64,000 nucleotides of DNA from Actinobacteria bacterium HGW-Actinobacteria-7 (GTDB lineage Bacteria; Actinomycetota; Coriobacteriia; Anaerosomatales; PHET01): positions 19,181-83,180 of the forward strand of contig PHET01000002.1 of assembly GCA_002841275.1 (NCBI GenBank), written 5' to 3'. The position numbers were made by a program, and so were the translations under genes. Numbering within the stretch: position 1 is the first letter of the stretch; each line of letters starts with the position of its first letter. Below, piece after piece: positions 19,409 through 36,417 of the stretch. Below the pieces are notes generated by a model. It saw nothing but the letters and a program-made list of their open reading frames with translations. It was not told the DNA's origin and searched no databases.

Positions 19409-20284
19409 TCAGGGCCGCCCGGCAAAACGTGCCACGACAATCCTGTCGCGACCGGCTAGGTCGGAAACGACCCTTACCTCTTCATACCACTCTTGCGCCT
19501 CTTGCGCTGCGATTCGCACCATTCTTTCGTCGAGTTCAATGGCAATCACGCCACCCGGCTTGAGCCACGCACGTGCATCACCGATAAGGCGGCGGAAGAA
19601 GTCCAAGCCATCAGGACCGCCGTCCAACGCAAGATGAGGTTCGAAGCCAGCGACCTCGCGGGGGAGATCGGGCACGTCAGAGCTGGGAATGTAGGGCGGA
19701 TTCGATATCACCGCATCCAGCGTACCGAGCAGTTCAACCGGCAGCGCCTCGAACAGGTCGCCCACAGCAACCCCCACGCGATCAGCCAGACCGAGGCGCT
19801 GCGCGTTCTCGGCAGCCACATCGACGGCGACCTGCGAGATATCAGTGGCCCACACGCGGGCATCAGTCTTCTCCTGGGCAAGCGAAAGTGCAATGCACCC
19901 GGATCCCGTACAGATATCTGCGATGATAGGGGCACCCATACTGCCGAGCTCGACAAGCAGCTCGCCCACCAGGATTTCGGTTTCCGGTCGAGGTATGAGC
20001 ACTCCGGGCCGAACCTTGAGCACAAGGTGGCGGAAGGCGACTTCCCCGGTGACGTACTGGAGTGGCTCTCCCGCAGCGCGACGCCTCACAGACTCCCGAA
20101 GCACCGTCCGCTCCTCGGGCGCCAAGGGACGGTCGTGGTAGGCGTACAGCTCGAGCCGCGAGAGACCAGTTGCGGCCGAGAGCAACCACTCTGCGCTACG
20201 GCGCGGGTGCTCGTCGCTCCTTTCGGCGAGGAACTCCTGTGTCCAGTCGAGTGCCGCCTTGACCGTCCAGACTCGCTCGCTCAC
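19409..20284 (-). CDS. prmC: Release factor glutamine methyltransferase
   Basis: EPLQYV, LIPRPETE, DICTGSG, SNPPY, ALDGGPDGL. Confidence 0.95.
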   Translation of the reverse strand: MSERVWTVKAALDWTQEFLAERSDEHPRRSAEWLLSAATGLSRLELYAYHDRPLAPEERTVLRESVRRRAAGEPLQYVTGEVAFRHLVLKVRPGVLIPRPETEILVGELLVELGSMGAPIIADICTGSGCIALSLAQEKTDARVWATDISQVAVDVAAENAQRLGLADRVGVAVGDLFEALPVELLGTLDAVISNPPYIPSSDVPDLPREVAGFEPHLALDGGPDGLDFFRRLIGDARAWLKPGGVIAIELDERMVRIAAQEAQEWYEEVRVVSDLAGRDRIVVARFAGRP

Positions 20285-20307
20285 CGGCGCTCCCCTGCCA
20301 CGCTGAT

Positions 20308-21381
20308 CTAGCCTGCGGCGAATGCCGCGAGGCGCTCGGCCCGATCCGCGGCAGCAAGCCCCTCGATCAGCTCACCGATCTCGCCGGCCATGATCGCCGG
20401 CATGTTGTGGATGGTGAGCCCGATGCGATGGTCGGTCACGCGGTCCTGGGGGTAGTTGTAGGTGCGGATCTTCTCGGACCGATCGCCCGAGCCGATCTGG
20501 CTCCTGCGCTGCGCCCCCAACTCCGCCTGCTGCTTCTCCAACTCCACCTCGTAGAGCCTGGCTCTGAGCACACGCATGGCAGCTTCCTTGTTCTGGAGCT
20601 GCGACTTCTGGTTCTGAGACTGCACAACGGTATTGGTGGGGAGGTGCGTGATTCGAACGGCAGAGTCAGTGGTGTTCACCGACTGCCCGCCAGGCCCGCT
20701 TGAGCGGTACACGTCGATGCGCAGGTCGTTGGTATTGATCTGTACTTCGACGTCTTCGACCTCAGGCAGTACCGCAACCGTGGCTGTCGAAGTGTGGATA
20801 CGCCCCTGCGATTCGGTGACCGGTACGCGCTGCACGCGATGAACCCCAGACTCGAACTTCATCTTCGAGTAGACCTTGTTGCCCTTGATCCGGAACGAGA
20901 CCTCACGGAATCCTCCGGTGTCCCCCTCGGATGCATCGATCTCCTCGGGCTTCCATTTCTGTAGCTCGGCATAGCGCACGTACATGCGGTACAGATCGCC
21001 AGCGAAGATGGCCGCCTCGTCACCGCCAGCGCCCGCACGAATCTCGACGATGATGTCCTTGTCGTCGTTGGGGTCCGCAGGAAGCATCATCACGCGGAGT
21101 TCGTCTTCGAGTTGGGGGACGCGTGCCTCGAGCTCTTTGGCCTCTTCTGCCGCGAACTCCTTCATCTCCGGATCGTGCTCGGTCTTCAGAACCTCTTTGG
21201 CCTCGTCGAACTGCTGCATGACGCTCAGATACTCTCTCGCTTTGTCAGCGATCGGGGTCTGAGCACTCTGTTCACGAGCAAGTCGCGTGTACTCCTTCTG
21301 GTCAGCAAGTACCGCCGGGTCGCCCAGTCTCTGGGTCAACTCGTCGTAGGCAGTCAGGAGCTTCCTCAGCTTGTCGCGCAT
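20308..21381 (-). CDS. prfA: Peptide chain release factor 1
   Basis: GGQ motif ([10 protein letters not shown]), PVT anticodon-mimic, next to prmC. Confidence 0.98.
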
Positions 21382-21383
21382 GT

Positions 21384-22415
21384 CTAGACCACAGCTTCCG
21401 TAGTGGGAACACCTTCTGAATCCTCGGCCTCGAGCATGGCTATGGGCTCTCCACGCTCGCCGGCCTCCTCGGCAAGCTCCCGATCGATCACGAGCTGCGT
21501 TGCCACGACCGCGACCTCGACCATGTCGTCATCGGGCTCGCGAGTGGTCATGGCCTGCATCTGGAGTCCGGGCCACAACACGATCTTCACGATCGGGTTG
21601 TCCGAGTGGTTGCCAGCCCACTTGACGGTGACCTCGTAGGCGAGGCCTGCAACCAGAGGCATCAGGATGAGCCGAGAGACTATCAGTATCGCCAGCACGC
21701 CAAGGCGGCTCTCCCAGCCCAGCAGTGCAGCAATCGGCTTCACCGGCACCAGCGAGAACACGAGAATCGCGATGACCATGACCATCAACAGAAACGAGGT
21801 GCCACAGCGCATGTGCTTGGTGGTGAACTGCTGAATCACCGGCACCTCGAGGGGGAGACTGTGTTCGTACGCGTGGATGGTCTTGTGTTCGGCACCGTGA
21901 TACGCGAAGACGCGCTGTATCTCTCCCATCCGGCTGATCGCCCAGATGTAGAGGAAGAACGCGCCGACACGCAACACCCCATCAACGATGTTCCAGGCGA
22001 ACGGGTGGTCCTTCGCCGAAACCATCAGGTTGGTGAGGACGGCGGGCAGCACAATGAACAACCCTATCGCCAGCGCGAGCCCAAAGACAAGCGACAGCCC
22101 GATTTCCTTGCTGGACAGCTGCTCGTCTTCACTCTCGCCGGACATCGATGCTGATATCGAGAATGCCCGCATGGCGAGGGTCAGCGTTTCGACCAGCGCT
22201 ACAACCCCCCGGATGATTGGTTTGCGCATCCAGGCGTGCTTCTTGGCAGCCGAGCGCAGATCGTGCGCCTCAGAGTGTATCGAGCCGTCCGGGGTGCGGA
22301 CCGCAATAGCCCAATTGTACTTGCCGCGCATCATGATGCCCTCGAGAACCGCCTGGCCGCCGATGTGCGTATGGGTGATCGGTCCGTCCAAGCGCTCGAC
22401 TACGCTGTCGCTCAT
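21384..22415 (-). CDS. DUF1385 family membrane protein
   Basis: [31 protein letters not shown]; commonly found near prfA/rpmE. Confidence 0.88.
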
Positions 22416-23101
22416 GAATCCTCCCGTTTGGGGGCACGCGGATAGGGGTCACCGCACGTCATCTTGCCCTCGCGGCACGGACCGCGCCGGCACGGGGCGC
22501 CGGCATCCATGAACACATACGGGGCGGTGGGCACTACCAAGTCGAGCATCTCGAGTGCGAGTGCACGGATTTCCCACTGTGCACGCTTGCAGCAACGCAC
22601 TTCGAAGAAGTGGAGCAACTCGCGTACGTTCATCGTTACGGCGATCTTCGTTTCGGTGGCATTGGGCAGCAGATAGCGAGCATCCTCGGCGCTGACTCCC
22701 GAATCGATGAGGTCACGATAGGCCGCAAACGCCGCCGTGTTGGCCGCGTCAAAACGTTCTTTGACCTTCGGATCCGCCGCGACAGCTGGCGGAACGATGA
22801 ACGCCGGCTCCTGGGCAAAGGACACATACCGCTGCGACTGCTGGTTGTAGCTCGCCAGCCGATGGCGCACCAACTGATGCGTGAGAGCGCGCGACACGCC
22901 ATCAATCGCGAACGTGTAGCTCGCGTGTTCGAGCGCCGAGAAGTGCCCGCTCGTCATGATCGTCTTGAGCACTTTGTGCACGGCGTCATCGCTCATGTGG
23001 TCCATGAGCTCGGCTGCCCCTACCGGCGCGTAGCACAGGCGGGCGGCAACGGCCATCGCTCGCTCAGGCTCGGGCGTGTGGTACAGCAGGCGGACGTCCA
23101 T
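22412..23101 (-). CDS. thyX: FAD-dependent thymidylate synthase
   Basis: GHFSALEH, HQLVRHRLASYNQQSQRY (RHRx7S), EDARYLLP, AQWEIR. Confidence 0.96.
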   Translation of the reverse strand: MDVRLLYHTPEPERAMAVAARLCYAPVGAAELMDHMSDDAVHKVLKTIMTSGHFSALEHASYTFAIDGVSRALTHQLVRHRLASYNQQSQRYVSFAQEPAFIVPPAVAADPKVKERFDAANTAAFAAYRDLIDSGVSAEDARYLLPNATETKIAVTMNVRELLHFFEVRCCKRAQWEIRALALEMLDLVVPTAPYVFMDAGAPCRRGPCREGKMTCGDPYPRAPKREDS

Positions 23102-23153
23102 GAGGCACTTCCTGACGTGAGAACGGCCGAACAACGGGCCTCGGCTACCCAGC

Positions 23154-23192
23154 AAAAGAGGGAGGCGCTTCGACTGGTCGAGGCGCCTCCCC
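23154..23192 (-). terminator. Intrinsic terminator after rpmE
   Basis: gggaggcgcttcgac/gtcgaggcgcctccc stem followed on the minus strand by CTCTTTT. Confidence 0.7.
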
Positions 23193-23224
23193 ATTCTAGT
23201 CGTGCGTGCGCTGCTAGCGCGAGT

Positions 23225-23665
23225 CTACTCGGCGCTCTCCTCGGCAGGGGCCTCAGCCTCGTCGGCGGTCTCGACGGCAGGAGCCGCTTCGACAACCTCG
23301 GCCTTGGCCTCATCGCGGGACACCTTGGTCTCGTACTGAGCTGCCTTGGCGGCCTTCTCGGCAGCCTTGGCCTCGCGCTCCTGCTTGGCCTGCATGGCGA
23401 CTTCTTCGCCGGCCTTGCGACGAGCTTCCTTCTCGGCAGCTTCCTTCTCCAGCGTGACAGCCGCGGCGTTGCCGAACTTGTCGCTGAAGCGCTGGACGCG
23501 TCCACCGGTGTCAACGAACTTCTGCTGACCGGTGAAGAACGGGTGGCACTGGTTGCACAGTTCTACGTGCAGCTCGCCGCCCGCGGTCGAGTGGGTCGCG
23601 AAACGGTTGCCGCATGAGCAGACGACCGTCGACTCCTTGTAATCAGGATGAATACCTTGCTTCAC
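23225..23665 (-). CDS. rpmE: 50S ribosomal protein L31 (Zn-binding type) with long charged C-terminal extension
   Basis: [12 protein letters not shown]...[19 protein letters not shown]; GGAGG RBS before GTG. Confidence 0.95.
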
Positions 23666-23765
23666 GTTCAGACACCTCCGATAGCGCCTTGGTTTCCGAC
23701 CAAGGCTGGACAGCCCGCGTAGTGTATCACCGCTTACCAAGCGCAGCAACGGATACGAGGCTGTT

Positions 23766-25105
<1,340 letters not shown>

Positions 25106-25109
<4 letters not shown>

Positions 25110-25768
25110 GCGTTCTTCACCTTCTCCCAGTCAGCAAGGAAGGACTCGAGCCCACGGTCGGTCAACGGGTGCTTCACGAGGTTCTTCAGTACAGCGAACG
25201 GCACGGTAGCGATGTCAGCGCCCATGAGGGCGGCCTGCGTGACGTGATTGGCCGAGCGAATCGACGCGGCGATCACCTCGACATCGTGGCCGAAGTCGTA
25301 GTTCGCGAGTGCCGTGACCACCTGAGAAAGCTGGTCGATGCCGTCCTCGGAGATGTCATCGAAGCGCCCCACGAACGGCGAGATGTACGAGGCACCCGAG
25401 CGGGCCGCGAGCATCGCTTGGGGAACGGTGAAGCACAGCGTCATGTTGACCTTGATGCCCTTGTCGGAAAGCGCCTTGGTGGCGGCGAGTCCTTCAGGCA
25501 TCGTGGGCACCTTGACGATGAGGTTCGGGGCGATTGCGGACAGCGCCTCACCCTCGCGCACGATCTCGTCCCGATGCAGCCCAACCGTCTCTCCGCTGAC
25601 CGGGCCATCGACGATATCGCAGATGCGCTTGAGGTGGTCGTGGAAGTCCGCGAGCTTGCCACCCTCGCGTGCGTACAGCGTCGGGTTGGTGGTCACTCCC
25701 GCGAGTACACCCCAACTCGCCGCCTCTTCGATCTCGGCGATATTCGCCGTGTCCAAGAAGAACTTCAC
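25106..25768 (-). CDS. tal: Transaldolase / fructose-6-phosphate aldolase family (short type)
   Basis: FFLDTAN, GVTTNPT, VKVP (Schiff-base Lys), SPFVGR, AASIR, HPLTDRGL. Confidence 0.93.
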
Positions 25769-25821
25769 TTAGCCGTTCCTTTCGTTCGTGTCACCGGTCC
25801 TTGTTGACCGGCCCCTGTCGT

Positions 25822-26724
25822 TCAGTTTTCGATTGCGGCGGTGACGACGTACTCGAGCACATCCGCCACGGTTCGGTCCAGCTGGTGGCTGTAGACCACC
25901 GGAATACCGTTCTCACGCGCCAACTCTTCGATGTAGCTGCCAAGCACCCGTATGCTTTCGAACCCCGCACGGTATCTATCGAGGGGTCGCGATCCTTCGG
26001 TCTGCGCTTCTCGGATGTGGAAATGGCTCAGATGGGAATCCTCATCGTTCACACCGATGACGAGCTGAACCACACGAGCACCTTCGAAGCTACGGGGATC
26101 AAGGTATCCCGGCACGAGGTGAATTCCCTCGATGACCATCGACGTTCCCTCGAGGACAGCTCTGGCGATGAGTGACTTCACACCCGAAGACACAACGGCA
26201 GTCTGTTCGCGGAAGCCGACGATGACGGGATTGGCGCCCTGTGGCACCGGGACTCTCAGACCCTTCCACGCATTGAACGCGCTTTCGTGCACCGCGGGCA
26301 TGAGGTCTTGGCTGAATATACCACGCATGACTTCTCGAATGGAATCCGTTGAAGATATACGTGTGATTCCCAGCCGGTGGGCCACCTCCGTGGCGATCGT
26401 GGACTTGCCCACACCGGTGGTGCCACCCACAAGCACGATGAGCGGACGATCGAGCCGAGACACGTCGCCGATCCGCAGGTAGCGGCGGGCGTAGTCCTCA
26501 CCGGCCATCGACTTCAGATACTCGGTGGTCATCTCGCGCAGGCGCTTGCTCGAGACCTTCAGTTCGTCTCTTCCGCGCAGGTCGTCTTGGACCTGCTTCG
26601 CAATCACGTACGCACGACTGGGTGGCAGACCCGTCGCCATGAGCGACTGCGCCAGGAGTCCCTTGCTGAACGGAAGGTCGTGCGCCTTGTCCGTGATGGT
26701 GATAATGGCCCCAGGTTCGGACAT
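25822..26724 (-). CDS. pgk2: 2-phosphoglycerate kinase (ATP-cone + P-loop), archaeal cDPG-pathway type
   Basis: PFSKGLLAQSL ATP-cone-like N-terminus, GGTTGVGKST, STDSIREVMR, EGIHLVPG; start overlaps cpgS stop (TGATG). Confidence 0.9.
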   Translation of the reverse strand: MSEPGAIITITDKAHDLPFSKGLLAQSLMATGLPPSRAYVIAKQVQDDLRGRDELKVSSKRLREMTTEYLKSMAGEDYARRYLRIGDVSRLDRPLIVLVGGTTGVGKSTIATEVAHRLGITRISSTDSIREVMRGIFSQDLMPAVHESAFNAWKGLRVPVPQGANPVIVGFREQTAVVSSGVKSLIARAVLEGTSMVIEGIHLVPGYLDPRSFEGARVVQLVIGVNDEDSHLSHFHIREAQTEGSRPLDRYRAGFESIRVLGSYIEELARENGIPVVYSHQLDRTVADVLEYVVTAAIEN

Positions 26725-28076
26725 CACAATTCCCCTCCGATACGCATCCGGCCGCGCTTGATTGCGAGCCGCGCCGCAGCGTCGACCAGTTCCCCAAGAT
26801 CCTGCCCATCCACGGCCACTGGAACGTTGTCGCACAGAACCGTGGGGACTCCTGCTTCCTCCCCCGCTTCTGCGACCACGTCGATTGCAGCCGCTTTGAG
26901 TTCGGTAACCAGCGTGTCGAACTCACCGGCATACCGGAGCAGATCCTCCCTCAGTCGTGATCGATCGCTGAGGTTGGTACTGACCGCGACGACGTGTGCG
27001 CCGTACTCCTCGGCCAGATACTCGCCTAGCTTGCCCGCGATGGCAGCAGGGGCCGTGGTCGCGAAGAGCACCCTTCGTCCGGCTATCGGTTGCAGCGGAA
27101 CAGGGCGCAGCGTCGTGGCCACAACCGGTAGCTCGGGCGCGATGCGCGCAATCTCCTCGCGGATGCGCTCTACGTCGTGAGCCGACGCTACAGGCTCCTC
27201 GGCCGAGGAGATCACCGCCAGGTCCGCTCGGGAGATGCGGTATGGCCCGAAATAGTCACTGACGTAGCCGGCACCACGGCCCGCCCCGATGACGAGGACC
27301 GACGCATCGGCAAAGACCGGCGGAATCGCCGATCCGGAGCCTTCGAGCACGAGCAGCTCCTTGCCAAGCGAGTCTGCCAGAATCGCTCCCTCGGGCACGT
27401 TGCTGAAGAAGGTCTCCCCCGCCATCCCGCCGCCGCACCGCCGGCATCCTACCGTTGTCACGCGGCTCATGACCGCGTCTTCGTAGTTGTCGCTCGAGGC
27501 GTGCTCACCCTGGCGGGCGAGTTCCAACAGGTCCGGCGTCGTGAGCTCGACCTGGTCTCCGTGGATGAGCTCGGGCTGCGCGGGACCGCCCCGACCCATG
27601 GCCAGTACAACGATATCGAGTCCGGCCGCCTTGAGCTGCCGAGCCACAAAAGCCGATACCGCGGTCTTTCCCACCCGCTTGCCGGTCCCGATGATGCCCA
27701 GCGCAGGCGTGGAAGTGCGCACGCGATCGACCGGGGCCGTGAACACGAAGTCCGCGCCACGATAGTCGACGCCCAGCGACAACGCGAGCGAAGCCAACCT
27801 GAGCCGGTCCGCCGAGGAGACCACTGGCTCATCCGAGAGGTCGACCACCTCGTCGGGAGCATACTGTTCCAGTGCCGCGCGCACCGCGTCCTCGGGAGTC
27901 GCGCCCGTGATCAGCGGCACCCCGTAGGTGGTCGAACCGCGGTCGAGATCGACCTTCTCGGTACCGCCCAGGAATACCGCCGCAACGACCTCGCACTCAT
28001 GAGCGAGCTCGCCCAGCGCGAACCGCACGACCGGCGGGTAGTGCTCCCCGTCGATGAGCGCCACCGCGCGCTTCAC
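26724..28076 (-). CDS. cpgS: Cyclic 2,3-diphosphoglycerate synthetase
   Basis: IDGEHYPPV, GGTEK, DLSDEPV, GTGKRVGKT, MGRGGP, HASSD, GCRRCGGGMAG, EGSG, TELKAAAIDVV match the CpgS family as I recall it. Confidence 0.9.
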   Translation of the reverse strand: MKRAVALIDGEHYPPVVRFALGELAHECEVVAAVFLGGTEKVDLDRGSTTYGVPLITGATPEDAVRAALEQYAPDEVVDLSDEPVVSSADRLRLASLALSLGVDYRGADFVFTAPVDRVRTSTPALGIIGTGKRVGKTAVSAFVARQLKAAGLDIVVLAMGRGGPAQPELIHGDQVELTTPDLLELARQGEHASSDNYEDAVMSRVTTVGCRRCGGGMAGETFFSNVPEGAILADSLGKELLVLEGSGSAIPPVFADASVLVIGAGRGAGYVSDYFGPYRISRADLAVISSAEEPVASAHDVERIREEIARIAPELPVVATTLRPVPLQPIAGRRVLFATTAPAAIAGKLGEYLAEEYGAHVVAVSTNLSDRSRLREDLLRYAGEFDTLVTELKAAAIDVVAEAGEEAGVPTVLCDNVPVAVDGQDLGELVDAAARLAIKRGRMRIGGEL

Positions 28077-28897
28077 TCCGGCTCCCCTTCGCCGAGAAGC
28101 TCGTAGCCACCTGCAGGCGGACCTTCGTTTTCACGCCACCGACAGTAGCGCTTGTTCACGTCATGGAAGTCCGCCACTACCTGAGCGTCGACATACGGCT
28201 CTTTCAGAAGCACACGCACGTGTGAGTCCTCGCGAATCTCGATGACGTTGTAGCAGGGGCGCACCTTGCCGCGCAACCGGTGGGTGCAGCACGTGCCGGC
28301 GTTGACGATGAGCATGTCCTCAAGCCGCCAGACGTTGGGAACATGCTTGTGCCCACACAACACCAGATCGACTCCGTTGTTCGCGAGTACCCGCAGAAGA
28401 TCGCCAGCGTCGTGGACGATGTTGCGCTCACGCCCCGTTCCCGGCACAGGCACCAGGTGGTGGTGCATGGCGAGAACCTTGAACCCGTCGGTGGATTTCG
28501 CGAAACGCTCCTCTATCCATGTGTAGCGCTCGCGCCCCACCCGACCGGTGTCCAGGTCCGGTTCGCTCGAATCGATGCCCAAGATGTGGGCATCCCGGTA
28601 TGCCAACTCGGTGCTGCGCGACCCGAAGAGTTCGGTGAAGTGCTCATCACCCACATTCCTCGCGTCATGGTTGCCCAGCAGCACGACCCTTCTATTGCAG
28701 GCGATGCGCTCGATCAGACTGTGAGCCGCCTCGAACTCGTGCCTGAACCCCATGTCAGTGAGATCCCCCGTCACCACCACGATGTCGGGGCACAGCAGAT
28801 TGAGTTCGTCGATCACCCGCTTGGCGAGCGAGGGGATGTGATACCGCGACCCGCAGTGCAGGTCGGAGATGTGGGCGATGACCGTCGGCTCACTCAC
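28073..28897 (-). CDS. Calcineurin-like metallophosphoesterase (Icc/CpdA-like)
   Basis: All five metal motifs: SDLH, TGDLTD, GNHD, MHHH, GHKH; GTGA overlap with cpgS. Confidence 0.9.
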   Translation of the reverse strand: MSEPTVIAHISDLHCGSRYHIPSLAKRVIDELNLLCPDIVVVTGDLTDMGFRHEFEAAHSLIERIACNRRVVLLGNHDARNVGDEHFTELFGSRSTELAYRDAHILGIDSSEPDLDTGRVGRERYTWIEERFAKSTDGFKVLAMHHHLVPVPGTGRERNIVHDAGDLLRVLANNGVDLVLCGHKHVPNVWRLEDMLIVNAGTCCTHRLRGKVRPCYNVIEIREDSHVRVLLKEPYVDAQVVADFHDVNKRYCRWRENEGPPAGGYELLGEGEPE

Positions 28898-28918
28898 GTC
28901 GGACCCCCTCGTCTGTGC

Positions 28919-29971
28919 CTACCGCGGCAGCGCGCTGCGCACTGCCGCGTCACGGTTTCCGGACAACGCCTCGAGATTCCCAAGCTGGCGCGAGATACCC
29001 AGAAGCGAACCCAGCAGGTCGCCGAACTGGTCCTCGTAGGTGATGGTCTCGTACTTCCCCTTGATACCGCCGCGTTTGGCCGCCGCGTCCATCGCATCCT
29101 GATAGGTCCCGAGCCTGTCGATCAGTCCGAGCTTCTTTGCCTCTTCGCCGTTCCACGCCCAGCCGGTGGCCATGCTCTCCACCTGCGATCGGGGGAGACT
29201 GCGCCCCTCGGCGACGATATCGATGAACTGCCCGTAGGCCTCATTGACCGAACCCTGTATGAGCGCGCGTTCTTCTTTTGAGAGCGGCCGGTAGAGACTG
29301 CCCGCGTCCTTGTACTTCCCTGCAGTGATGACCTGGAAGTTGACTCCGACCTTGCCGAGCAGCGCTCCCACGTTGGGAATCTCCGAGATCACACCGATGC
29401 TTCCAACCGCCGAGCCGGGCATCGCCCATATCTCATCTGATTGTGACGCGATCATGTACGCCCCCGACGCGCCCACATCGCCCACCGACACAACGACAGG
29501 CTTCGAGCACTGCTTGATGTAGCGCGCGATCTCCTCGCTTGCAGCGACCGTCCCTCCGGGAGAGTCGACCCGCAAGACTATCGCCTTGACCCGTACGTCT
29601 TCCTCGGCGCGCTTGAGCAGCTCGTAGAAGTATTCCGGGGTCACTACACCGCTCACATTCGAGCCAGAGCCGGCGATCACTCCATCGACATGGATGACGG
29701 CTACTGCTCCTCCGCCGCCTGTCGCACCGGAGTTGAAGCCCTTCCCAGCCAGAAGAACGAAGGGTATCGTGCACGAACCGACGATGAGCAGCATCAGAAG
29801 CGCGACTCCCAGCGTCCACCAGATCCACGCCTTGCTACGCCGCGGCACAGCGGACGTGACCGACGGCACCGCGGTCACATAGGCCGGAACTACGCCCACC
29901 TGCTGCGGAACCGTCGGAATCCTGGACGTGCCGGCTTCAGGTGGGATCGGGGGGTGACCTTGGTCAGCCAT
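28919..29971 (-). CDS. sppA: Signal peptide peptidase SppA (S49)
   Basis: One TM, RVDSPGG, ASGAYMIA, GSIGV, GKYKD, GLIDRLG. Confidence 0.92.
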   Translation of the reverse strand: MADQGHPPIPPEAGTSRIPTVPQQVGVVPAYVTAVPSVTSAVPRRSKAWIWWTLGVALLMLLIVGSCTIPFVLLAGKGFNSGATGGGGAVAVIHVDGVIAGSGSNVSGVVTPEYFYELLKRAEEDVRVKAIVLRVDSPGGTVAASEEIARYIKQCSKPVVVSVGDVGASGAYMIASQSDEIWAMPGSAVGSIGVISEIPNVGALLGKVGVNFQVITAGKYKDAGSLYRPLSKEERALIQGSVNEAYGQFIDIVAEGRSLPRSQVESMATGWAWNGEEAKKLGLIDRLGTYQDAMDAAAKRGGIKGKYETITYEDQFGDLLGSLLGISRQLGNLEALSGNRDAAVRSALPR

Positions 29972-30074
29972 CAGGCGCCCTTTCGAGGATTTGAGCACCA
30001 CCGAATGTCAGATGGGGTGCGGGGATACAGATGATTCTTCCCCAGCAAGGGGGGTCGGTCAATCACGCGAGGCC

Positions 30075-30992
30075 TTAGAGCAGCCGTGCCCCTGTGCGAT
30101 CCACTCTCAGCGCCTGCGGTGCGCGGCGCGTCCCAAGTGCACGAATGCGCTCGGCCGCCCTGTCGGCGACCTGCTGCGCAAGAGCGTGTGCGAGTTCATC
30201 AGTGTCGCCTGCAACCAGCCCGATCACCGTGGGCCCTGCGCCGGAAAGGGCCACTCCGGCTGCGCCGGAGTCTCTCAGGATGTCATGGACCTCTCTCAGG
30301 TCAGCGACCGCAGCGGCCCGGTACGGCTCATGCAGTCGGTCCGCAAGTGCGGCACCCAGAAGCTCCGGTCTGCCCACCGCGATGGATGCCGCGAGAAGTC
30401 CTGCGTGAGCCACATTGAACGCCGCATCTTCGTGGGGCACTGCGTCAGGCAACATCGCGCGGGCCACGCGCGTAGCGAGCTCGGCGATCGCGGGCACTAC
30501 GACTGCCGCGAGACCGCGTGCAGGCTCAAACCGCGCGAAACGCGGGCCACCAACATCGGTCCAACATACGGTGAAACCACCCACGAGCGCTGCGGCGACG
30601 TTGTCCGGGTGCCCCTCGATCTCTGTGGCCAGCTCAAGAACCCGCTGCTCTCCAAAATCGACGCCGACAAGTGCCTGACCCAGCAAGAGTCCCGCGATGA
30701 TGGCTGTTGAGGACGAACCCAGTCCCGAACCCGTGGGCACCTGATTGACGCAGCCTATCTCGGCCCGCAGCTCGGGGTGCCCTGCCTCGGCGAACGCGCG
30801 CGCCATGGCCACAGCGGCAAGGTTGGTTCCGTCGGTTGCCAGCGCGCCGGCTCCCGCACCCGAAACCACGACTCGCCACTCAGGCGCGAGTTCCGCCTCG
30901 AAGCGGTTGTGCAGATCCAAGGCGAGGCCGAAGCTATCGAACCCCGGACCGAGGTTGGCCGATGTAGCCGGAACGAGAACCGCAGCTCCCAT
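30075..30992 (-). CDS. thrB: Homoserine kinase
   Basis: VPATSANLGPGFD, PTGSGLGSS, EGHPDN, SGAGPT. Confidence 0.96.
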   Translation of the reverse strand: MGAAVLVPATSANLGPGFDSFGLALDLHNRFEAELAPEWRVVVSGAGAGALATDGTNLAAVAMARAFAEAGHPELRAEIGCVNQVPTGSGLGSSSTAIIAGLLLGQALVGVDFGEQRVLELATEIEGHPDNVAAALVGGFTVCWTDVGGPRFARFEPARGLAAVVVPAIAELATRVARAMLPDAVPHEDAAFNVAHAGLLAASIAVGRPELLGAALADRLHEPYRAAAVADLREVHDILRDSGAAGVALSGAGPTVIGLVAGDTDELAHALAQQVADRAAERIRALGTRRAPQALRVDRTGARLL

Positions 30993-30996
30993 GCGA

Positions 30997-32283
30997 CTAG
31001 ATATCTTCTACACGGATGACGGCTGCAGTACGCGACACCACGTCAAGCGCCTCGATCTCGGACAAGGCCGAGCGCACAGACGCTTCACGGGCACAGTGCG
31101 TGACGTACACGATTTCGGCCACGCCCTCCTCCGCCCGCTTCTGGATGACCGAGGCGATCGACACCTCATGGGCGCCAAACACACTCGCGACGGCCGCGAG
31201 CACGCCGGGCTTGTCGGCGACTTCGAGCCGGATGTAGTAGCCGGTTTCGAGATCTGCGATGTCGCGCAGAGGCAGCACCTCGGTGCAGGTGCACCCCACA
31301 GTGGGCGCGCTGCCGCTCTGGATGCGACGAGCGACCTCGATCAGGTCGCCCACCACAGCAGAAGCAGCAGGCAGTGAGCCTGCACCCTCGCCAAAGAACA
31401 TCGTCTCACCCACAGAGTCGCCCACCACGTAGATCGCGTTGTAGACGCCGTTGACACTAGCGAGAGGGTGAGACGTGCGGATCATCGTAGGATGAACGCG
31501 AATATCGACACCGGAGTCGGTACGGCGTGCGATTGCGAGCAGCTTGATGGTGCTGCCCATCTCGCGCGCATAGGCGATATCGGCGGGTGAGAGCGAGCGG
31601 ATTCCCTCGGTGGGAACCTGACTCATCACGACCCGGCTGTTGAAGGCGATGGAAGCCAGAATGGCAATCTTGGCAGCGGCGTCGTGGCCGTCCACGTCTG
31701 CGGTGGGATCCGCCTCCGCGAAGCCGCGGGCCTGCGCCTCGGCGAGCACCGTATCGTAGTCGAGCCCGTCGTCGGCCATACGGGTGAGCATGTAGTTGGT
31801 TGTGCCGTTGACGATTCCCATCACGGTGACGATCTCGTTGCTGGTCAGGGAGTGCTTGAGCGGTTCGATGATGGGGATTCCGCCGCCGACCGATGCTTCG
31901 AAGCGGATGTCGACGCCCGAGGCTTCCGCCGCCACCATCACCTCTTCGCCTGAGGTCGCCATCAGCGCCTTGTTGGCGGTCACGACGCTCTTGCCGGACG
32001 CGAGCGACTTCAGTACGACGTCACGCGCGATACCCGTCCCGCCGATAAGCTCGATGATCACATCGAGTGACGGATCGTCGATGAGCGCCTGGGCATCATC
32101 GGAGCACGCCTCGGCGGCAAGGCCTAGATCAGCGAAGCGGGCAGTATTGCGATCGGCGAACCGGGCCAGCTCGATATCGACTCCGGCACGACGTCGGAAG
32201 TCCTCACGATGACGGCCCAGGATCTCTATGACACCGGATCCAACGGTGCCAAGGCCGATAAGACCAACACGGATGGTGCGCAT
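30997..32283 (-). CDS. hom: Homoserine dehydrogenase with C-terminal ACT domain
   Basis: GLGTVG, VVTANK, FEASVGGGIP, NGTTNY, EADPTADVDG, DKPGVLA. Confidence 0.96.
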   Translation of the reverse strand: MRTIRVGLIGLGTVGSGVIEILGRHREDFRRRAGVDIELARFADRNTARFADLGLAAEACSDDAQALIDDPSLDVIIELIGGTGIARDVVLKSLASGKSVVTANKALMATSGEEVMVAAEASGVDIRFEASVGGGIPIIEPLKHSLTSNEIVTVMGIVNGTTNYMLTRMADDGLDYDTVLAEAQARGFAEADPTADVDGHDAAAKIAILASIAFNSRVVMSQVPTEGIRSLSPADIAYAREMGSTIKLLAIARRTDSGVDIRVHPTMIRTSHPLASVNGVYNAIYVVGDSVGETMFFGEGAGSLPAASAVVGDLIEVARRIQSGSAPTVGCTCTEVLPLRDIADLETGYYIRLEVADKPGVLAAVASVFGAHEVSIASVIQKRAEEGVAEIVYVTHCAREASVRSALSEIEALDVVSRTAAVIRVEDI

Positions 32284-32399
32284 GGAGAACCTCCGGGAGA
32301 CGTTGTTGAGACGCACTGAATGGCGTGCAGCCTATTCTACCCGAGAGTGGCCGCGAGCCACCGGTCAGACGGACAAGACCCGCCGACGCACCGCAGCCG

Positions 32400-32792
32400 C
32401 TACGGTGAGCCCTTGGCCCAGTGCAGGTACTCAGCCAGGTCGGCCTCTCGCGCCTCAGGCGTACCAAGCTCCAGTTCACGCCGATACTCCGCGGCGGCGA
32501 TAAGATCACGCGGCTCCATCCGCGCCACACCGACCCACATCTCAAGCTTGGCCAGATTGCCATCGCTGACCTTAAGCGCCGCCAGCATCAGCCGACACGC
32601 AGTCTCGTCCGCTTCCTCACCGCAGTCCGGTGCAGGAGCGAGATCGGCGAGATAGACAGCGGCGTGCGTGTGGGCGGGCGCGGGGAAGCATTCGCGCAAC
32701 CGCGCATTCACTGTCCGAGAATCCCAAAACGACGCCTTGTACCCGAGCTCATCAGGGTGGTTCGGTTCCGGCGTCTCCACGCTGCTACTCAA
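32400..32792 (-). CDS. Hypothetical protein (130 aa)
   Basis: Fills the gap between hom and the thioredoxin gene; TTG start overlaps the upstream stop; protein-like helical composition (RLMLAALKVSDG...RDLIAAAEY). Confidence 0.65.
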   Translation of the reverse strand: MSSSVETPEPNHPDELGYKASFWDSRTVNARLRECFPAPAHTHAAVYLADLAPAPDCGEEADETACRLMLAALKVSDGNLAKLEMWVGVARMEPRDLIAAAEYRRELELGTPEAREADLAEYLHWAKGSP

Positions 32793-33201
32793 GACCCTTG
32801 TCGATGAATGTGCGCAGGGTCGAGGCGTCGGCCGCGCCGTCTAGCCGGGCAATCTCGGTCCCATTCGTGGCGACGATTATCATCGACGGAAGGGTGGTCA
32901 CCCGATGATCGTCAGCGATCTTCGCACTTGACTCGTCTGTGTTCACCGCGCCGTAGATCACGAACTCGACCTTTCCCGCATACTCTGACTGTAACCCGTT
33001 GACCACGGGCCTCATCTCAGCGCACGAGGGTCAACTTGGGTCGCCGAATATGTATAGCGTAGGCAGCCCGGAAGCCGATGGCGCCCACACCGTTCCGGGC
33101 GCGGCCCCGTCAGCCACCTGTGTCGAGACGCAGCCCCCCGCACCCACAACAAGCAGCGCGAGGAACGCCATCATCACCAATATCGTGCGGAGCCTGATCA
33201 T
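32785..33201 (-). CDS. Probable selenocysteine-containing lipoprotein thioredoxin (UxxC), 138 aa
   Basis: ATG 33201 gives MIRLRTILVMMAFLALLVVGAGGC (lipoprotein-like signal)...LPTLYIFGDPS-[TGA 33031-33033]-PSCAEMRPVVNGL...TTLPSMIIV. The frame continues into the 76-aa ORF-track fragment, and TGA occupies the first Cys of CxxC. Confidence 0.85.
32993..33011 (-). promoter_or_regulatory. Putative bacterial SECIS element
   Basis: mRNA GGCCCGU-GGUCA-ACGGGUU: 7-bp stem with a G-first apical loop starting 26 nt after the UGA. Confidence 0.7.
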
Positions 33202-33262
33202 CGATCAAGCATACCCGAGCCGAGCCGACGCGTGAACGCCGCGCCGCTCCTCCCGCCGAGCC

Positions 33263-34624
33263 TCAGCCCAACTCACACTTCATCAGATCGTCGTAGGTCT
33301 CGCGCCGCACGGCCCAGCGCCAGCCACCGTCGACGACGAACACGACACCGGGGCGCACCTGCTTGTTGTAGTTGCTGCTCATGGACTGGCAGTATGCCCC
33401 CGTTGCGCACACACACAGGATGTCTCCGACATCCGGGCACTGCAGAGGCGCATCGTTGACTACGATATCCCCGCTCTCGCAGTGCTTCCCCGCGACCGTG
33501 GCCACCATCTCGCGCGGCCTGTCCGCCTTGTTGGCGATCATCGCCTCGTAGTGCGCATCGTAAAGGGATGTACGGATGTTGTCTGACATGCCGCCATCGA
33601 CCGCCACATAGGTGCGGATGTTGGGAATCTCCTTGATCGAGCCCACGGTATAGAGGGTCACACCCGCATTGGCAACGATAGAGCGTCCCGGCTCGACGGC
33701 CATGCGCGGCACGGTCAGCCCGTGCTTCTCGCACTCCGCCTTGATCCCGTCGACCACCACTTTGCCGTAGTCCTTGATTGTCGAGGGCTCGTCCGGAATG
33801 CCGTAGGCGATGCCCAGTCCGCCGCCCGTATCGAGCATGCCGACCCCGACGCCCGTCTCGGCCTTGATCTCAGCGATGAACTCGACGATGACCTCGATGG
33901 CCTTGGAGAAGCTGTTCAGGGCGAAGATCTGGCTGCCGATGTGCATGTGCAGCCCGTCGAAGTCCAGTCCGGGCAGCTCGATTGCCCGCTTCACGGCAGC
34001 CATCGCGAGTCCCTGATTGCGGCCGAAGCCGAACTTGGAGTCCTCGGCGCCGGTCATGATGAAGTCGTGCGTGTCTGCCTCGACTCCCGGGGTGACGCGC
34101 AGGAGCACTTTCTGGTTGATGCCTCGCTCACTTGCCAGAGCGCTCAGGCGGTCCATCTCCTCGAAACTGTCGACAACGATGCGGCCAACCTTGGCATCGA
34201 GACACTCGGTCAGCTCGACAGGGGTCTTGTTGTTCCCATGGACATAGATGCGATCCATCGGAAAGCCCGCTCGGCGCGCGAACGCCAGCTCTCCACCGCT
34301 GGAAACGTCCAGGCAGCACCCCTCGTCAGCCACGATCTTCAACATGGCAAGCGACATGAATGCCTTGCCCGCGTAAACGACGTCCACGTCTTTCCAGTGA
34401 TAGGTGGTCCACTTCACATACTCCGAAAGCTGGTGGCGGATGGTCGCCTCGTCCATCACGTAGACCGCGGTTCCCGCTTCGGCTGCGAGATCGACCATAT
34501 CCACTCCGCCGATCCACAGGTGGCCATCTTTCACCTGCGCGGTCATGGGCAGCACGGACATGAGGTCGTGACCCGTCTTGAGGTCCGGCGTCGCCGGCGG
34601 TCGCGGTGCGCTGGGTCTACCCAT
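33263..34624 (-). CDS. lysA: Diaminopimelate decarboxylase
   Basis: YAGKA (PLP Lys), HGNNK, SKFG, HIGSQ, EPGR, HCESGD, TGAY. Confidence 0.96.
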   Translation of the reverse strand: MGRPSAPRPPATPDLKTGHDLMSVLPMTAQVKDGHLWIGGVDMVDLAAEAGTAVYVMDEATIRHQLSEYVKWTTYHWKDVDVVYAGKAFMSLAMLKIVADEGCCLDVSSGGELAFARRAGFPMDRIYVHGNNKTPVELTECLDAKVGRIVVDSFEEMDRLSALASERGINQKVLLRVTPGVEADTHDFIMTGAEDSKFGFGRNQGLAMAAVKRAIELPGLDFDGLHMHIGSQIFALNSFSKAIEVIVEFIAEIKAETGVGVGMLDTGGGLGIAYGIPDEPSTIKDYGKVVVDGIKAECEKHGLTVPRMAVEPGRSIVANAGVTLYTVGSIKEIPNIRTYVAVDGGMSDNIRTSLYDAHYEAMIANKADRPREMVATVAGKHCESGDIVVNDAPLQCPDVGDILCVCATGAYCQSMSSNYNKQVRPGVVFVVDGGWRWAVRRETYDDLMKCELG

Positions 34625-34707
34625 GGTGATCCCCTTCGAGAAAGTTCTTAGCTCACACTAAGTCCAACAATTCGTTGATACTAATCTATCTCGTCTCGTG
34701 CGACAAG

Positions 34708-36417
34708 TCACATGCTCTCGGGAGCGCTGACTCCCAGCAGCGCGAGAACACAGCGTAAGGCTCGCCGTGCCGCATCCACCGCGTACAGGCGCGCAGCGGT
34801 CAGTTCCACATCATCGCTGACGACACGACACCGCGTATAGAACTGATGGAAGCCAGTAGCCAGGTCCTCGGCATAGCGCGTCAGTTTGTTGGGGGCCAGA
34901 TCACGCGCAGCAGCCTCGACCACCTCCGTGAACTCGCCTAGGCGGCGCATGAGTGCCAACTCAGCAGGCGCATCAAGGAGCGACAGGTCAGCTGTGGGTC
35001 GGACGACCTCGACAGCGAGCGAATCCGCATCCACAGCCGTGGATGACACCGCCTCCCCTGCCGCCTTGCGCATGATCGAACAGATGCGGGCGTGTGCGTA
35101 CTGCACGTAGAACACCGGGTTATCGGCCGACTGCTGACGTGCAAGTTCGATATCGAAATCCACCTGCTGATCGGTGGAGCGCCTCAGGAACCAGTAGCGC
35201 GCGGCATCAGCACCAACCTCATCAAGCAACTCCTCGAACGTAACCATCTCACCCGTGCGCTTGCTCATGCGCACGGCCTCGCCGTTGCGGAAGAGGTTCA
35301 CGAGCTGGCCGATGACCACATCGAGTTTGCCTTCGTGGCCCAGCGCCGCGCATGCGGCCTTCATCCGGGCCACATAGCCGTGGTGATCGGCGCCCCAGAT
35401 GTTGATGACCCGGTCGAAACCGCGATCGAACTTGTTCTTGTGGTACGCGATATCCGCCGCGAAGTAGGTGTACTCCCCGTCAGCCTTGACCAGGACCCTG
35501 TCCTTGTCGTCGCCGAAGTCGGTCGAACGGAACCACGTGGCACCATCCAGCTCGAAGATGTACCCCGCATCCCGCAGCGCGGCGATGCCGTCCTCGACAG
35601 CACTCGGCCCGCCGCCGGGGGCACTCGCGTGAAGCGTTCTCTCCGAGAACCACACGTCGAAGTCGACTCCCATTCCATGGAGCACGCGCTTCAGATGCTC
35701 GAGAACCTGCACGTACGCCTTCTCGCGGAAGTACTGCTCGCGCTCGTGTGGCGCGGCGTCGAACCAGCAGGTGCTTTCGGCCTCGAATATCTCCCGAGCG
35801 ATCTCCGTGATGTAGGCGCCCTGATACCACTCGTCAGCGAACTCGACTTCAGCGCCGCAGAGCTCCAAATAGCGGGCCGAGACGCTCGCGCCGAAGATGT
35901 CCATCTGGACACCGGCGTCGTTGACGTAGAACTCGCGCTCGACCTTCCACCCAGCGTGCTCAAGCACGCGGGCCATCGCATCGCCAAGCGCGGCCCACCT
36001 GCCGTGACCGACGTGCATGGGGCCGACGGGGTTCGCCGAGACGAACTCGACCTGGACGCGCCTGCCGTGTCCGATGTCGACCCGCCCGAACGCGCGGTCG
36101 GCCTCGGATGCCTCTTTCAGTACGCGCTGCAGTGCCATCGGGGAGAGGCGCAGGTTGATGAATCCGGGCCCCGCTATCTCAACGGCGGCAATGTCGGCAT
36201 CTTCTGAGAGATGCGACGCGATGACCTCGGCGATCTGGCGCGGGTTCATGCCCGCTGACTTCGCGCTTCGCATCGCGACACTCGTGGCCCAGTCGCCATG
36301 AGATGGGTCACGCGGGCGCTCGACCGCGGGGTCGGGAACCTGTTCGAGCGGAAGCTCACCAGCGTCGATTGCAGCAGTGATCGCAGTGGTGACAAGCGCG
36401 GAAATGGCGTCTCTCAC
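34708..36417 (-). CDS. argS: Arginine--tRNA ligase
   Basis: GPGFIN, SANPVGPMHVGHGR (HIGH-like), GADHHGY, MSKRTG, YVQYAHAR. Confidence 0.97.
   Translation of the reverse strand: MRDAISALVTTAITAAIDAGELPLEQVPDPAVERPRDPSHGDWATSVAMRSAKSAGMNPRQIAEVIASHLSEDADIAAVEIAGPGFINLRLSPMALQRVLKEASEADRAFGRVDIGHGRRVQVEFVSANPVGPMHVGHGRWAALGDAMARVLEHAGWKVEREFYVNDAGVQMDIFGASVSARYLELCGAEVEFADEWYQGAYITEIAREIFEAESTCWFDAAPHEREQYFREKAYVQVLEHLKRVLHGMGVDFDVWFSERTLHASAPGGGPSAVEDGIAALRDAGYIFELDGATWFRSTDFGDDKDRVLVKADGEYTYFAADIAYHKNKFDRGFDRVINIWGADHHGYVARMKAACAALGHEGKLDVVIGQLVNLFRNGEAVRMSKRTGEMVTFEELLDEVGADAARYWFLRRSTDQQVDFDIELARQQSADNPVFYVQYAHARICSIMRKAAGEAVSSTAVDADSLAVEVVRPTADLSLLDAPAELALMRRLGEFTEVVEAAARDLAPNKLTRYAEDLATGFHQFYTRCRVVSDDVELTAARLYAVDAARRALRCVLALLGVSAPESM

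Follow-up and report, generated by a model that had tools for sequence, protein, structure and literature searches.

The 64,000-nucleotide (nt) stretch of the Actinobacteria bacterium HGW-Actinobacteria-7 genome analyzed here (the window, from contig PHET01000002.1 of this member of the Coriobacteriia) raises the question of whether a bacterium makes cyclic 2,3-diphosphoglycerate (cDPG) and whether it would owe the genes for it to archaea. An earlier note on this DNA had picked out two adjacent genes, cpgS and pgk2, as a complete cDPG biosynthesis pair, possibly acquired from archaea and now part of a housekeeping transcript. We find that both belong to a proposed three-gene cassette, mpe-cpgS-pgk2, and that the whole is probably best explained as an old, mostly vertically inherited feature of Actinomycetota, set in a lysA-hom-thrB ... 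rho-prfA backbone and making cDPG. Direct support comes from sequence homology, the retention of ligand residues, conserved gene order, co-distribution of the genes, and tree topology. Positions below are numbered on the whole window, and all cassette genes and the flanking genes discussed lie on its minus strand. The cassette comprises the following:

cpgS: 26724-28076, minus strand; 450 amino acids, GTG start; cyclic 2,3-diphosphoglycerate synthetase homologue
pgk2: 25822-26724, minus strand; 300 amino acids, ATG start at 26724; 2-phosphoglycerate kinase homologue
mpe: 28073-28897, minus strand; 274 amino acids; calcineurin-like metallophosphoesterase, proposed third cassette member

The two open reading frames of the earlier note are found where it had placed them, adjacent and coupled, with the cpgS stop and pgk2 start overlapping by 1 nt at a TGATG junction that has a GGAGGGGA stretch upstream; the metallophosphoesterase between sppA and cpgS had been overlooked. 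The TGA stop of mpe in turn overlaps the GTG start of cpgS by 4 nt (GTGA), with GGGGAG upstream, and GGAG-like stretches lie 5' of the start at each of the mpe, cpgS, and pgk2 junctions. Upstream of the ATG at 26724, the pgk2 frame stays open as far as 26835; since alignments to the NCBIfam profile and to archaeal homologues begin only near residue 8 of the 300-residue form, we prefer that ATG as its start. The genome (2.53 Mb in 38 contigs, 100% complete, 0.75% contaminated) holds a single copy of cpgS and a single copy of pgk2.

The assignment of CpgS is carried by its similarity to the characterized cDPG synthetase of Methanothermus fervidus. In a phmmer search, residues 2-434 align with residues 4-444 of the chain in PDB 8ORU/8ORK (E 3.4e-121), spanning both the N-terminal dimerization domain and the C-terminal P-loop domain. 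In the M. fervidus enzyme, 2,3-diphosphoglycerate (2,3-DPG), Mg2+, and ADP are held by E45 and K46 of the partner subunit and by K145, R146, K149, T150, D208, E305, T353, E404, and K406, with P335 named as a further nucleotide contact (PMC10690619). By pairwise alignment and motif positions, the window equivalents are E40, K41, K133, R134, K137, T138, D196, E293, T341, E392, and K394. When the window protein is aligned with 11 homologues from other families of Actinomycetota, ten of these positions show no variation, and the remaining one, E293, is conserved to at least 90%. The invariant positions include the four ligand residues of the Walker A motif (GTGKRVGKT at 130-138; K133, R134, K137, and T138), the Mg2+ ligand D196, and the trans-subunit substrate contacts E40 and K41. 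The nucleotide contacts E293, T341, E392, and K394 are conserved, as is an R-P-x-P stretch near P335, although the mapping of P335 itself is ambiguous by hand. The description of the cpgS signature motifs as intact is therefore borne out.

The window protein thus has the Walker A K/R/K/T residues, the Mg-ligand aspartate, the trans-subunit Glu-Lys pair, and the nucleotide contacts in common with the M. fervidus enzyme. It differs in its host, a groundwater bacterium rather than a hyperthermophilic methanogen, and in its setting: cpgS is coupled to pgk2 and mpe in the window and stands alone in the 35 archaeal loci considered below. CpgS also matches, with E 3.2e-105, another solved structure that bears the name cyclic 2,3-diphosphoglycerate synthetase (PDB 9SXB, 436 amino acids). 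A database protein identical to CpgS is assigned to family PF27272 in precomputed annotation; in our Pfam/NCBIfam profile scan, whose set lacks the PF27272 model, CpgS matched only DUF1611 at 17.7 bits, under the cut-off, and no NCBIfam family.

Pgk2 has its best family matches in two 2-phosphoglycerate kinase (2PGK) models, NF003259 (E 3.6e-88, 295.9 bits; residues 8-296 of 300 against profile positions 6-291 of 306) and NF008994 (E 1.8e-98, 330.2 bits), although both scores fall under the equivalog cut-offs (see below). The related families NF008995 (156 bits) and NF008996 (mevalonate-3-phosphate 5-kinase, 83 bits) score far under both. Two domains were indicated, both under their Pfam gathering scores: a weak ATP-cone at 18-84 (22.6 versus 25.8 bits) and an AAA-type P-loop at 97-132. 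A sequence search of the PDB gave no match. Full-length homologues in five methanogen genomes are 37-40% identical to the window protein. Pgk2 therefore resembles the methanogen 2-phosphoglycerate kinase (NF003259 / PRK04220; enzyme in PMC1224877) in its near full-length profile match and, judging from the sub-threshold domain matches, may combine an ATP-cone-like N-terminus with a P-loop kinase; it differs in being linked to cpgS, from which pgk2 is unlinked in the archaeal genomes searched, and in scoring under the curated cut-off of the methanogen-type NF003259 model. Judged by homology, the enzyme assignments of CpgS and Pgk2 are sound.

If the two proteins are what they appear to be, where does the pair sit, and is that place peculiar to this genome? 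The genes next to the cassette in the window are the following:

thrB: 30075-30992, minus strand; upstream flank
sppA: 28919-30001, minus strand; S49 signal peptide peptidase (Pfam Peptidase_S49, TIGR00706), upstream flank
tal/fsa: 25106-25768, minus strand; transaldolase / fructose-6-phosphate aldolase family (Pfam TAL_FSA), downstream flank
rho: 23766-25109, minus strand; transcription termination factor (Pfam Rho_RNA_bind and ATP-synt_ab), downstream

The position between thrB/sppA and tal-rho given in the earlier note is thus accurate, with mpe as an additional member. Spacing is tight, with 21 nt between sppA and mpe, 53 nt between pgk2 and tal, and a 4-nt overlap of tal and rho. The wider neighborhood consists of a lysA-like decarboxylase gene, hom, thrB, and sppA upstream, and tal/fsa, rho, thyX, a DUF1385 gene, and prfA downstream. 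The G+C content of the cassette (0.60-0.67) is similar to that of its flanks and presents no anomaly.

This arrangement extends far beyond the window. We fetched 40 Actinomycetota loci, 20 each from the window's order and from other families of the phylum; cpgS is followed immediately by pgk2 in 38 and preceded immediately by mpe in 35. A pattern scan using one genome per species found at least 600 stretches, of which 574 were confirmed, and the best 80 of these matches were used for named loci. Of the named bacterial loci, 41 have an actinobacterial context; here pgk2 adjoins cpgS in 32 of the 37 cases that offer room for it, and mpe does so in 36 of 39. Where loci are long enough, the block hom-thrB-(sppA)-mpe-cpgS-pgk2-(tal)-rho-(thyX)-DUF1385-prfA recurs even where CpgS is only 39-53% identical to the window protein, and the same block position is found in other classes of Actinomycetota. 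A survey of synteny in Coriobacteriia, as the earlier note had proposed, accordingly finds cassette and position conserved in the window's order, and also beyond that class.

The gene itself is correspondingly common. CpgS was detected significantly in 7997 of 8000 scored candidates from a large protein database, and cpgS is present in 229 of 401 sampled Actinomycetota genomes (215 of 387 when 14 genomes flagged as unpublished are set aside), figures that contradict the earlier description of bacterial homologues as sparse. The best 120 database matches are 68-100% identical to the window protein, and the named ones are 2,3-diphosphoglycerate synthetases from Coriobacteriia or Actinomycetota metagenome-assembled genomes (MAGs). 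In a sample of the window's class, 86 of 201 genomes carry cpgS, namely the window genome and 85 of the 92 others of its order; among the 108 that represent the other orders of the class it was not found. The best 80 pattern-scan matches include Coriobacteriia, Candidatus Aquicultor, Subteraquimicrobiales, Thermoleophilia, Rubrobacteraceae, and Acidimicrobiia, together with four loci labeled Bacillota or Anaerolineae and 35 archaeal loci, the latter all labeled Methanobacteriota (Methanobacteriaceae, Methanopyri, or unclassified). Hence, the cassette is common in the phylum, and the copy in the window is an ordinary example of it.

Some of these matches have features of their own. Six cpgS matches contain one in-frame stop, TAG, TAA, or TGA (genome and contig handles G030:C6, G552:C54, G440:C9, G380:C12, G372:C20, and G569:C18), which could reflect sequencing errors or pseudogenes. 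Three loci titled Eubacteriales or Reyranella (L042, L049, and L109) have the full actinobacterial gene order and either branch within the window's order or are 67-74% identical; from this placement and identity, their MAG labels look wrong.

Absence of the cassette is as coordinated as its presence. In the seven same-order genomes lacking cpgS, pgk2 is found in none (the sole match scored 19 bits, E 5e-4), and mpe is absent from six, the seventh having only a paralogue-type match of 52% identity at another place. In the five of these seven that were examined, sppA is followed directly by tal-rho. This distribution fits a joint loss or gain of mpe-cpgS-pgk2. Exceptions in gene order occur in Rubrobacteraceae: the two fetched loci without pgk2 cluster with named members of that family, and their genomes have a pgk2 homologue elsewhere (37-38% identity). 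Rubrobacteraceae-type loci (L008, L009, L105, L116, and L121) read mpe-cpgS-...-rho, with no pgk2 at the locus. The Rubrobacteraceae pgk2 lies elsewhere in two genomes and is present as three adjacent fragments in a third (G577:C15:3522-4353), where it could be a frameshifted or decaying gene.

In archaea the picture is different. Downstream of archaeal cpgS, pgk2 is found in 0 of the 30 loci with room for it, and upstream mpe in 0 of 34; within about 4 kb of the 35 archaeal cpgS genes neither partner is present. All five methanogen genomes searched do have pgk2 homologues, at distant places.

These contrasts bear on whether the window lineage acquired an archaeal cpgS-pgk2 pair recently and placed it in a housekeeping operon. 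That the characterized enzymes are archaeal speaks for such an import, as does the fact that window CpgS is about as similar to its Methanobacteriaceae and Methanopyri counterparts (41-46% identity) as to those of other Actinomycetota classes (39-53%). It is nevertheless very hard to reconcile with a gene order that recurs across the phylum, with the presence of cpgS in over half of the sampled Actinomycetota genomes, or with the normal base composition; and since the archaeal loci have neither pgk2 nor mpe linked to cpgS, no archaeal pair that could have moved as a unit was seen.

The CpgS phylogeny points the same way. The tree was built from the best segment per locus of 120 loci, of which seven were dropped (coverage below 0.85 or an internal stop), and 16 of 32 rows labeled Methanobacteria were omitted; the resulting quick tree has 98 rows and is unrooted. 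Its 19 archaeal rows form one side of a branch with a support of 100 in the Shimodaira-Hasegawa-like approximate likelihood-ratio test (SH-aLRT), and window CpgS falls within a clade of 41 rows from its own order (SH-aLRT 100), with same-family genomes nearest. CpgS identity to the window also tracks that of the housekeeping neighbors (Spearman 0.87 for Rho, n=67; 0.81 for Tal, n=61; 0.76 for Hom, n=42), as expected for co-inheritance, and that of Pgk2 (0.91, n=72), with the caveat that p-values for these correlations overstate the case because the loci are related to each other. We therefore regard a recent, lineage-specific import as highly improbable; the nesting of window CpgS among archaea, which such an origin would entail, gives way to a separate archaeal clan, and the suggestion of a transfer from archaea, taken as an event in this lineage, is not upheld.

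Could the exchange between the domains have been older, and could it have run from bacteria to methanogens? In that case, the pathway would have arisen as an Actinomycetota operon, and bacteria would have passed cpgS, perhaps together with pgk2 and mpe, to methanogens. The wide spread of the cassette at a fixed position in several Actinomycetota classes would fit this, as would the restriction of the archaeal loci among the best 80 to Methanobacteriota, the presence of Mpe homologues (41-47% identical, in a clan of their own) in all five methanogen genomes searched, and the free quick tree, which placed the archaeal clan among some Actinomycetota lineages. However, a tree constrained to hold 75 rows as one clan (all Actinomycetota rows and five unlabeled or mislabeled rows with actinobacterial gene order) reached a log-likelihood 9.4 above the free tree and was not rejected (p-AU 0.71 in the approximately unbiased test), a comparison weakened by the fact that the 75-row group was defined after the first tree had been seen. 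The nesting is hence not robust, and we dropped it as evidence of direction. Carriers outside our sample also count against a bacterial source: passages of PMC7554672 name thermophilic Thaumarchaeota, and Pyrococcus yayanosii appears as a further archaeal carrier in a literature listing. Because the trees are unrooted, they are compatible with ancient exchange in either direction. An ancient inter-domain transfer is possible; the specific course from Actinomycetota to methanogens we consider unlikely, though well above the recent import.

What would the cassette do? By analogy with the characterized archaeal enzymes, Pgk2, with its P-loop kinase and ATP-cone-like N-terminus, would phosphorylate 2-phosphoglycerate to 2,3-DPG, and dimeric CpgS would then use ATP to close the intramolecular phosphoanhydride, yielding cDPG, ADP, and inorganic phosphate (Pi), as the M. 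fervidus enzyme does; we infer both catalytic steps for the window organism on this basis. Mpe would hydrolyze cDPG or 2,3-DPG for turnover, and translational coupling would keep the cassette proteins in step. The genome encodes a cofactor-independent phosphoglycerate mutase (692.6 bits), and a profile search found no match in it to the 2,3-bisphosphoglycerate-dependent mutase; 2,3-DPG would thus not be needed as a mutase cofactor.

As to its physiological role, cDPG would here more probably be a store of phosphate, carbon, or energy, or a polyanionic partner of K+, than a thermoprotectant, since hyperthermophily is not a trait of many of the carriers. A reserve or charge-balancing role has been discussed for cDPG of Methanothermobacter thermautotrophicus (PMC1224877). 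For the cultured Coriobacteriia lineage OPB41, which we suspect to be the window's order, passages of PMC9686372 describe a range from mesophilic to growth at 25-77 °C. Together with the groundwater origin of the window, this temperature range makes a strictly thermoprotective role unlikely.

Several observations weigh against reading the cassette as an operon for cDPG synthesis. Pgk2 scores under both equivalog cut-offs (295.9 versus 343 bits for NF003259, and 330.2 versus 603 for NF008994). Matches to the 2PGK family also occur in Thermus, Deinococcus, Haloferax, Sulfolobus, and M. jannaschii, none of which is a cDPG producer to our knowledge, so that pgk2 by itself is not diagnostic for cDPG. 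A 2005 comparison, in the passages concerned, had flagged the 2PGK gene (COG2074) of Thermus and Deinococcus as "archaeal" (PMC1274311). Two genomes labeled Bacillota and Anaerolineae (G575 and G576) have cpgS and no detectable pgk2 anywhere. The joint absence of three adjacent genes could be the result of one deletion, whatever their function. In Rubrobacteraceae, which carry cpgS, passages of a paper on Rubrobacter solutes do not mention cDPG (PMC3505630), and cDPG may therefore not be a major solute there. Finally, the co-transcription of the cassette is putative, bacterial cDPG synthesis as a whole is so far a prediction from genes, and cDPG is described in PMC10690619 and PMC12136491 as exclusive to methanogens.

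Several of these points would also fit an alternative in which the proteins keep their fold and serve another purpose in bacteria, acting on a different phosphorylated acid, making only 2,3-DPG, or making a cyclic pyrophosphate at low level for regulation or as an intermediate; a pool of cDPG would then not form. The 2PGK family does include other activities, such as the mevalonate-3-phosphate 5-kinase of NF008996, and its occurrence in apparent non-producers, the sub-threshold Pgk2 scores, the bacteria with cpgS and no pgk2, and the Rubrobacter solute passages would all be accommodated. Yet the positions that bind 2,3-DPG in the solved M. fervidus complex (K145, R146, E45 of the partner, and the Mg ligands D208 and T150) do not vary among the bacterial proteins, and the adjacency of cpgS and pgk2 in nearly all carriers is what one would expect if the product of one enzyme feeds the other. 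A changed purpose is thus rather improbable in our view, and cDPG synthesis by an old Actinomycetota cassette continues to be the reading we prefer.

The Bacillota and Anaerolineae loci were also viewed in their own right: at L088 (G575), L092 (G576), L074, and L100, CpgS is 45-49% identical to the window protein and neither pgk2 nor mpe is nearby, and three Bacillota CpgS rows form their own clade in the tree.

The third member of the cassette is the least characterized. Mpe matches Pfam Metallophos (PF00149) at 65.9 bits against a cut-off of 21.5 and contains the stretches DLH, GD, GNHD, HHH, and GHKH, which we take to be the usual metal-binding motifs. In the profile scan it scored under every NCBIfam equivalog cut-off. 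Its nearest solved relatives are the class III phosphodiesterase-like enzymes Rv0805, GpdQ, and Icc (E about 3e-10), with which it shares the calcineurin-like fold and the metal-binding stretches; the similarity is only distant, and cDPG is not a known substrate of those enzymes. The conserved place beside cpgS suggests a substrate in cDPG metabolism. We know of no gene assigned to the archaeal cDPG hydrolase activity. In M. thermautotrophicus this activity is membrane-bound and inhibited by K+ and Pi (PMC1224877). The role proposed for Mpe is the same, a phosphohydrolase expected to act on cDPG; the archaeal enzyme is known as an activity, with no sequence to set beside Mpe. From its gene neighborhood, we propose only tentatively, and with rather less than even confidence, that Mpe opens or dephosphorylates cDPG for turnover.

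Mpe homologues in the methanogen genomes lie away from cpgS. At first sight they would support a shared trio; we do not count them as such, since same-order paralogues outside the cassette are equally similar to Mpe (45-55%) and the archaeal copies form their own clan. Such a second metallophosphoesterase is present elsewhere in many same-order genomes (for example, G081:C1:346394-347086 and G042:C1:1266832-1267536; L140-L149), and in three loci without cassette mpe (L034, L039, and L040) the paralogue is the sole copy. In the Mpe tree, which has a shape like that of CpgS, the eight archaeal copies form one clan (96) and the ten paralogues from the same order group in a single clade (99) that lies among the cassette copies. 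The mpe tally for the class sample, 86 of 201 genomes, includes at least five with the paralogue only.

How much of this is new? Annotation pipelines already name these proteins "2,3-diphosphoglycerate synthetase." Among the top-ranked hits of larger literature result sets, we found no report of cDPG in bacteria or of an mpe-cpgS-pgk2 cassette, in agreement with the earlier note, which knew of no demonstration of native cDPG accumulation in this group. Among the matches listed, papers naming 3-diphosphoglycerate synthetase concern archaea or are general reviews; passages of PMC9686372 on cultured Anaerosomatales leave cDPG unmentioned; and passages of PMC10690619 and PMC12136491 treat the compound as a thermoprotective extremolyte of biotechnological interest, from hyperthermophilic methanogens only. 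What remains of interest is a product apparently never sought in bacteria, within that literature scope, an ancient cassette at a fixed position, and a conserved phosphoesterase as a candidate for cDPG turnover.

In its boldest form, the proposal would be that cDPG metabolism is ancestral and common in Actinomycetota by way of the fixed three-gene cassette, with Mpe as the cDPG (or 2,3-DPG) hydrolase and methanogens perhaps as recipients; taken as a whole, we think this rather unlikely. If the cassette is active, a large share of Actinomycetota would make cDPG, non-hyperthermophilic lineages of groundwater, soil, and sediment among them, and the likely role of the compound would move toward phosphate, carbon, or energy storage or charge balance. 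The bacterial enzymes may then also prove easier to express, and they would offer a compact operon for cDPG production and a concrete candidate gene for cDPG breakdown.

Several further observations concern the locus as a whole. Three DNA sequencing runs, all belonging to a single groundwater metagenome study, contained window DNA, and two of these runs may be its source; no RNA run containing it was present among the sequencing runs searched. A scan of 22000-35500 gave one promoter-like and four terminator-like sites, versus 1.9 and 6.2 in shuffled sequence; with counts as high in the shuffles, the scan is uninformative on the transcript. Of the proposal that the genes are part of a housekeeping transcript, the dense same-strand packing with housekeeping genes therefore stands, while the transcript itself is a prediction from gene layout. 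The backbone lysA-hom-thrB ... rho-thyX-DUF1385-prfA (19409-34624) keeps its order and strand across distant Actinomycetota families, which makes it useful as an anchor for comparing insertions and losses. Within it, the gene at 25106-25768 matches TIGR00875, the fructose-6-phosphate aldolase / TalC model, at 262.7 bits, above the cut-off of 245.95, and its product may be an aldolase rather than a transaldolase.

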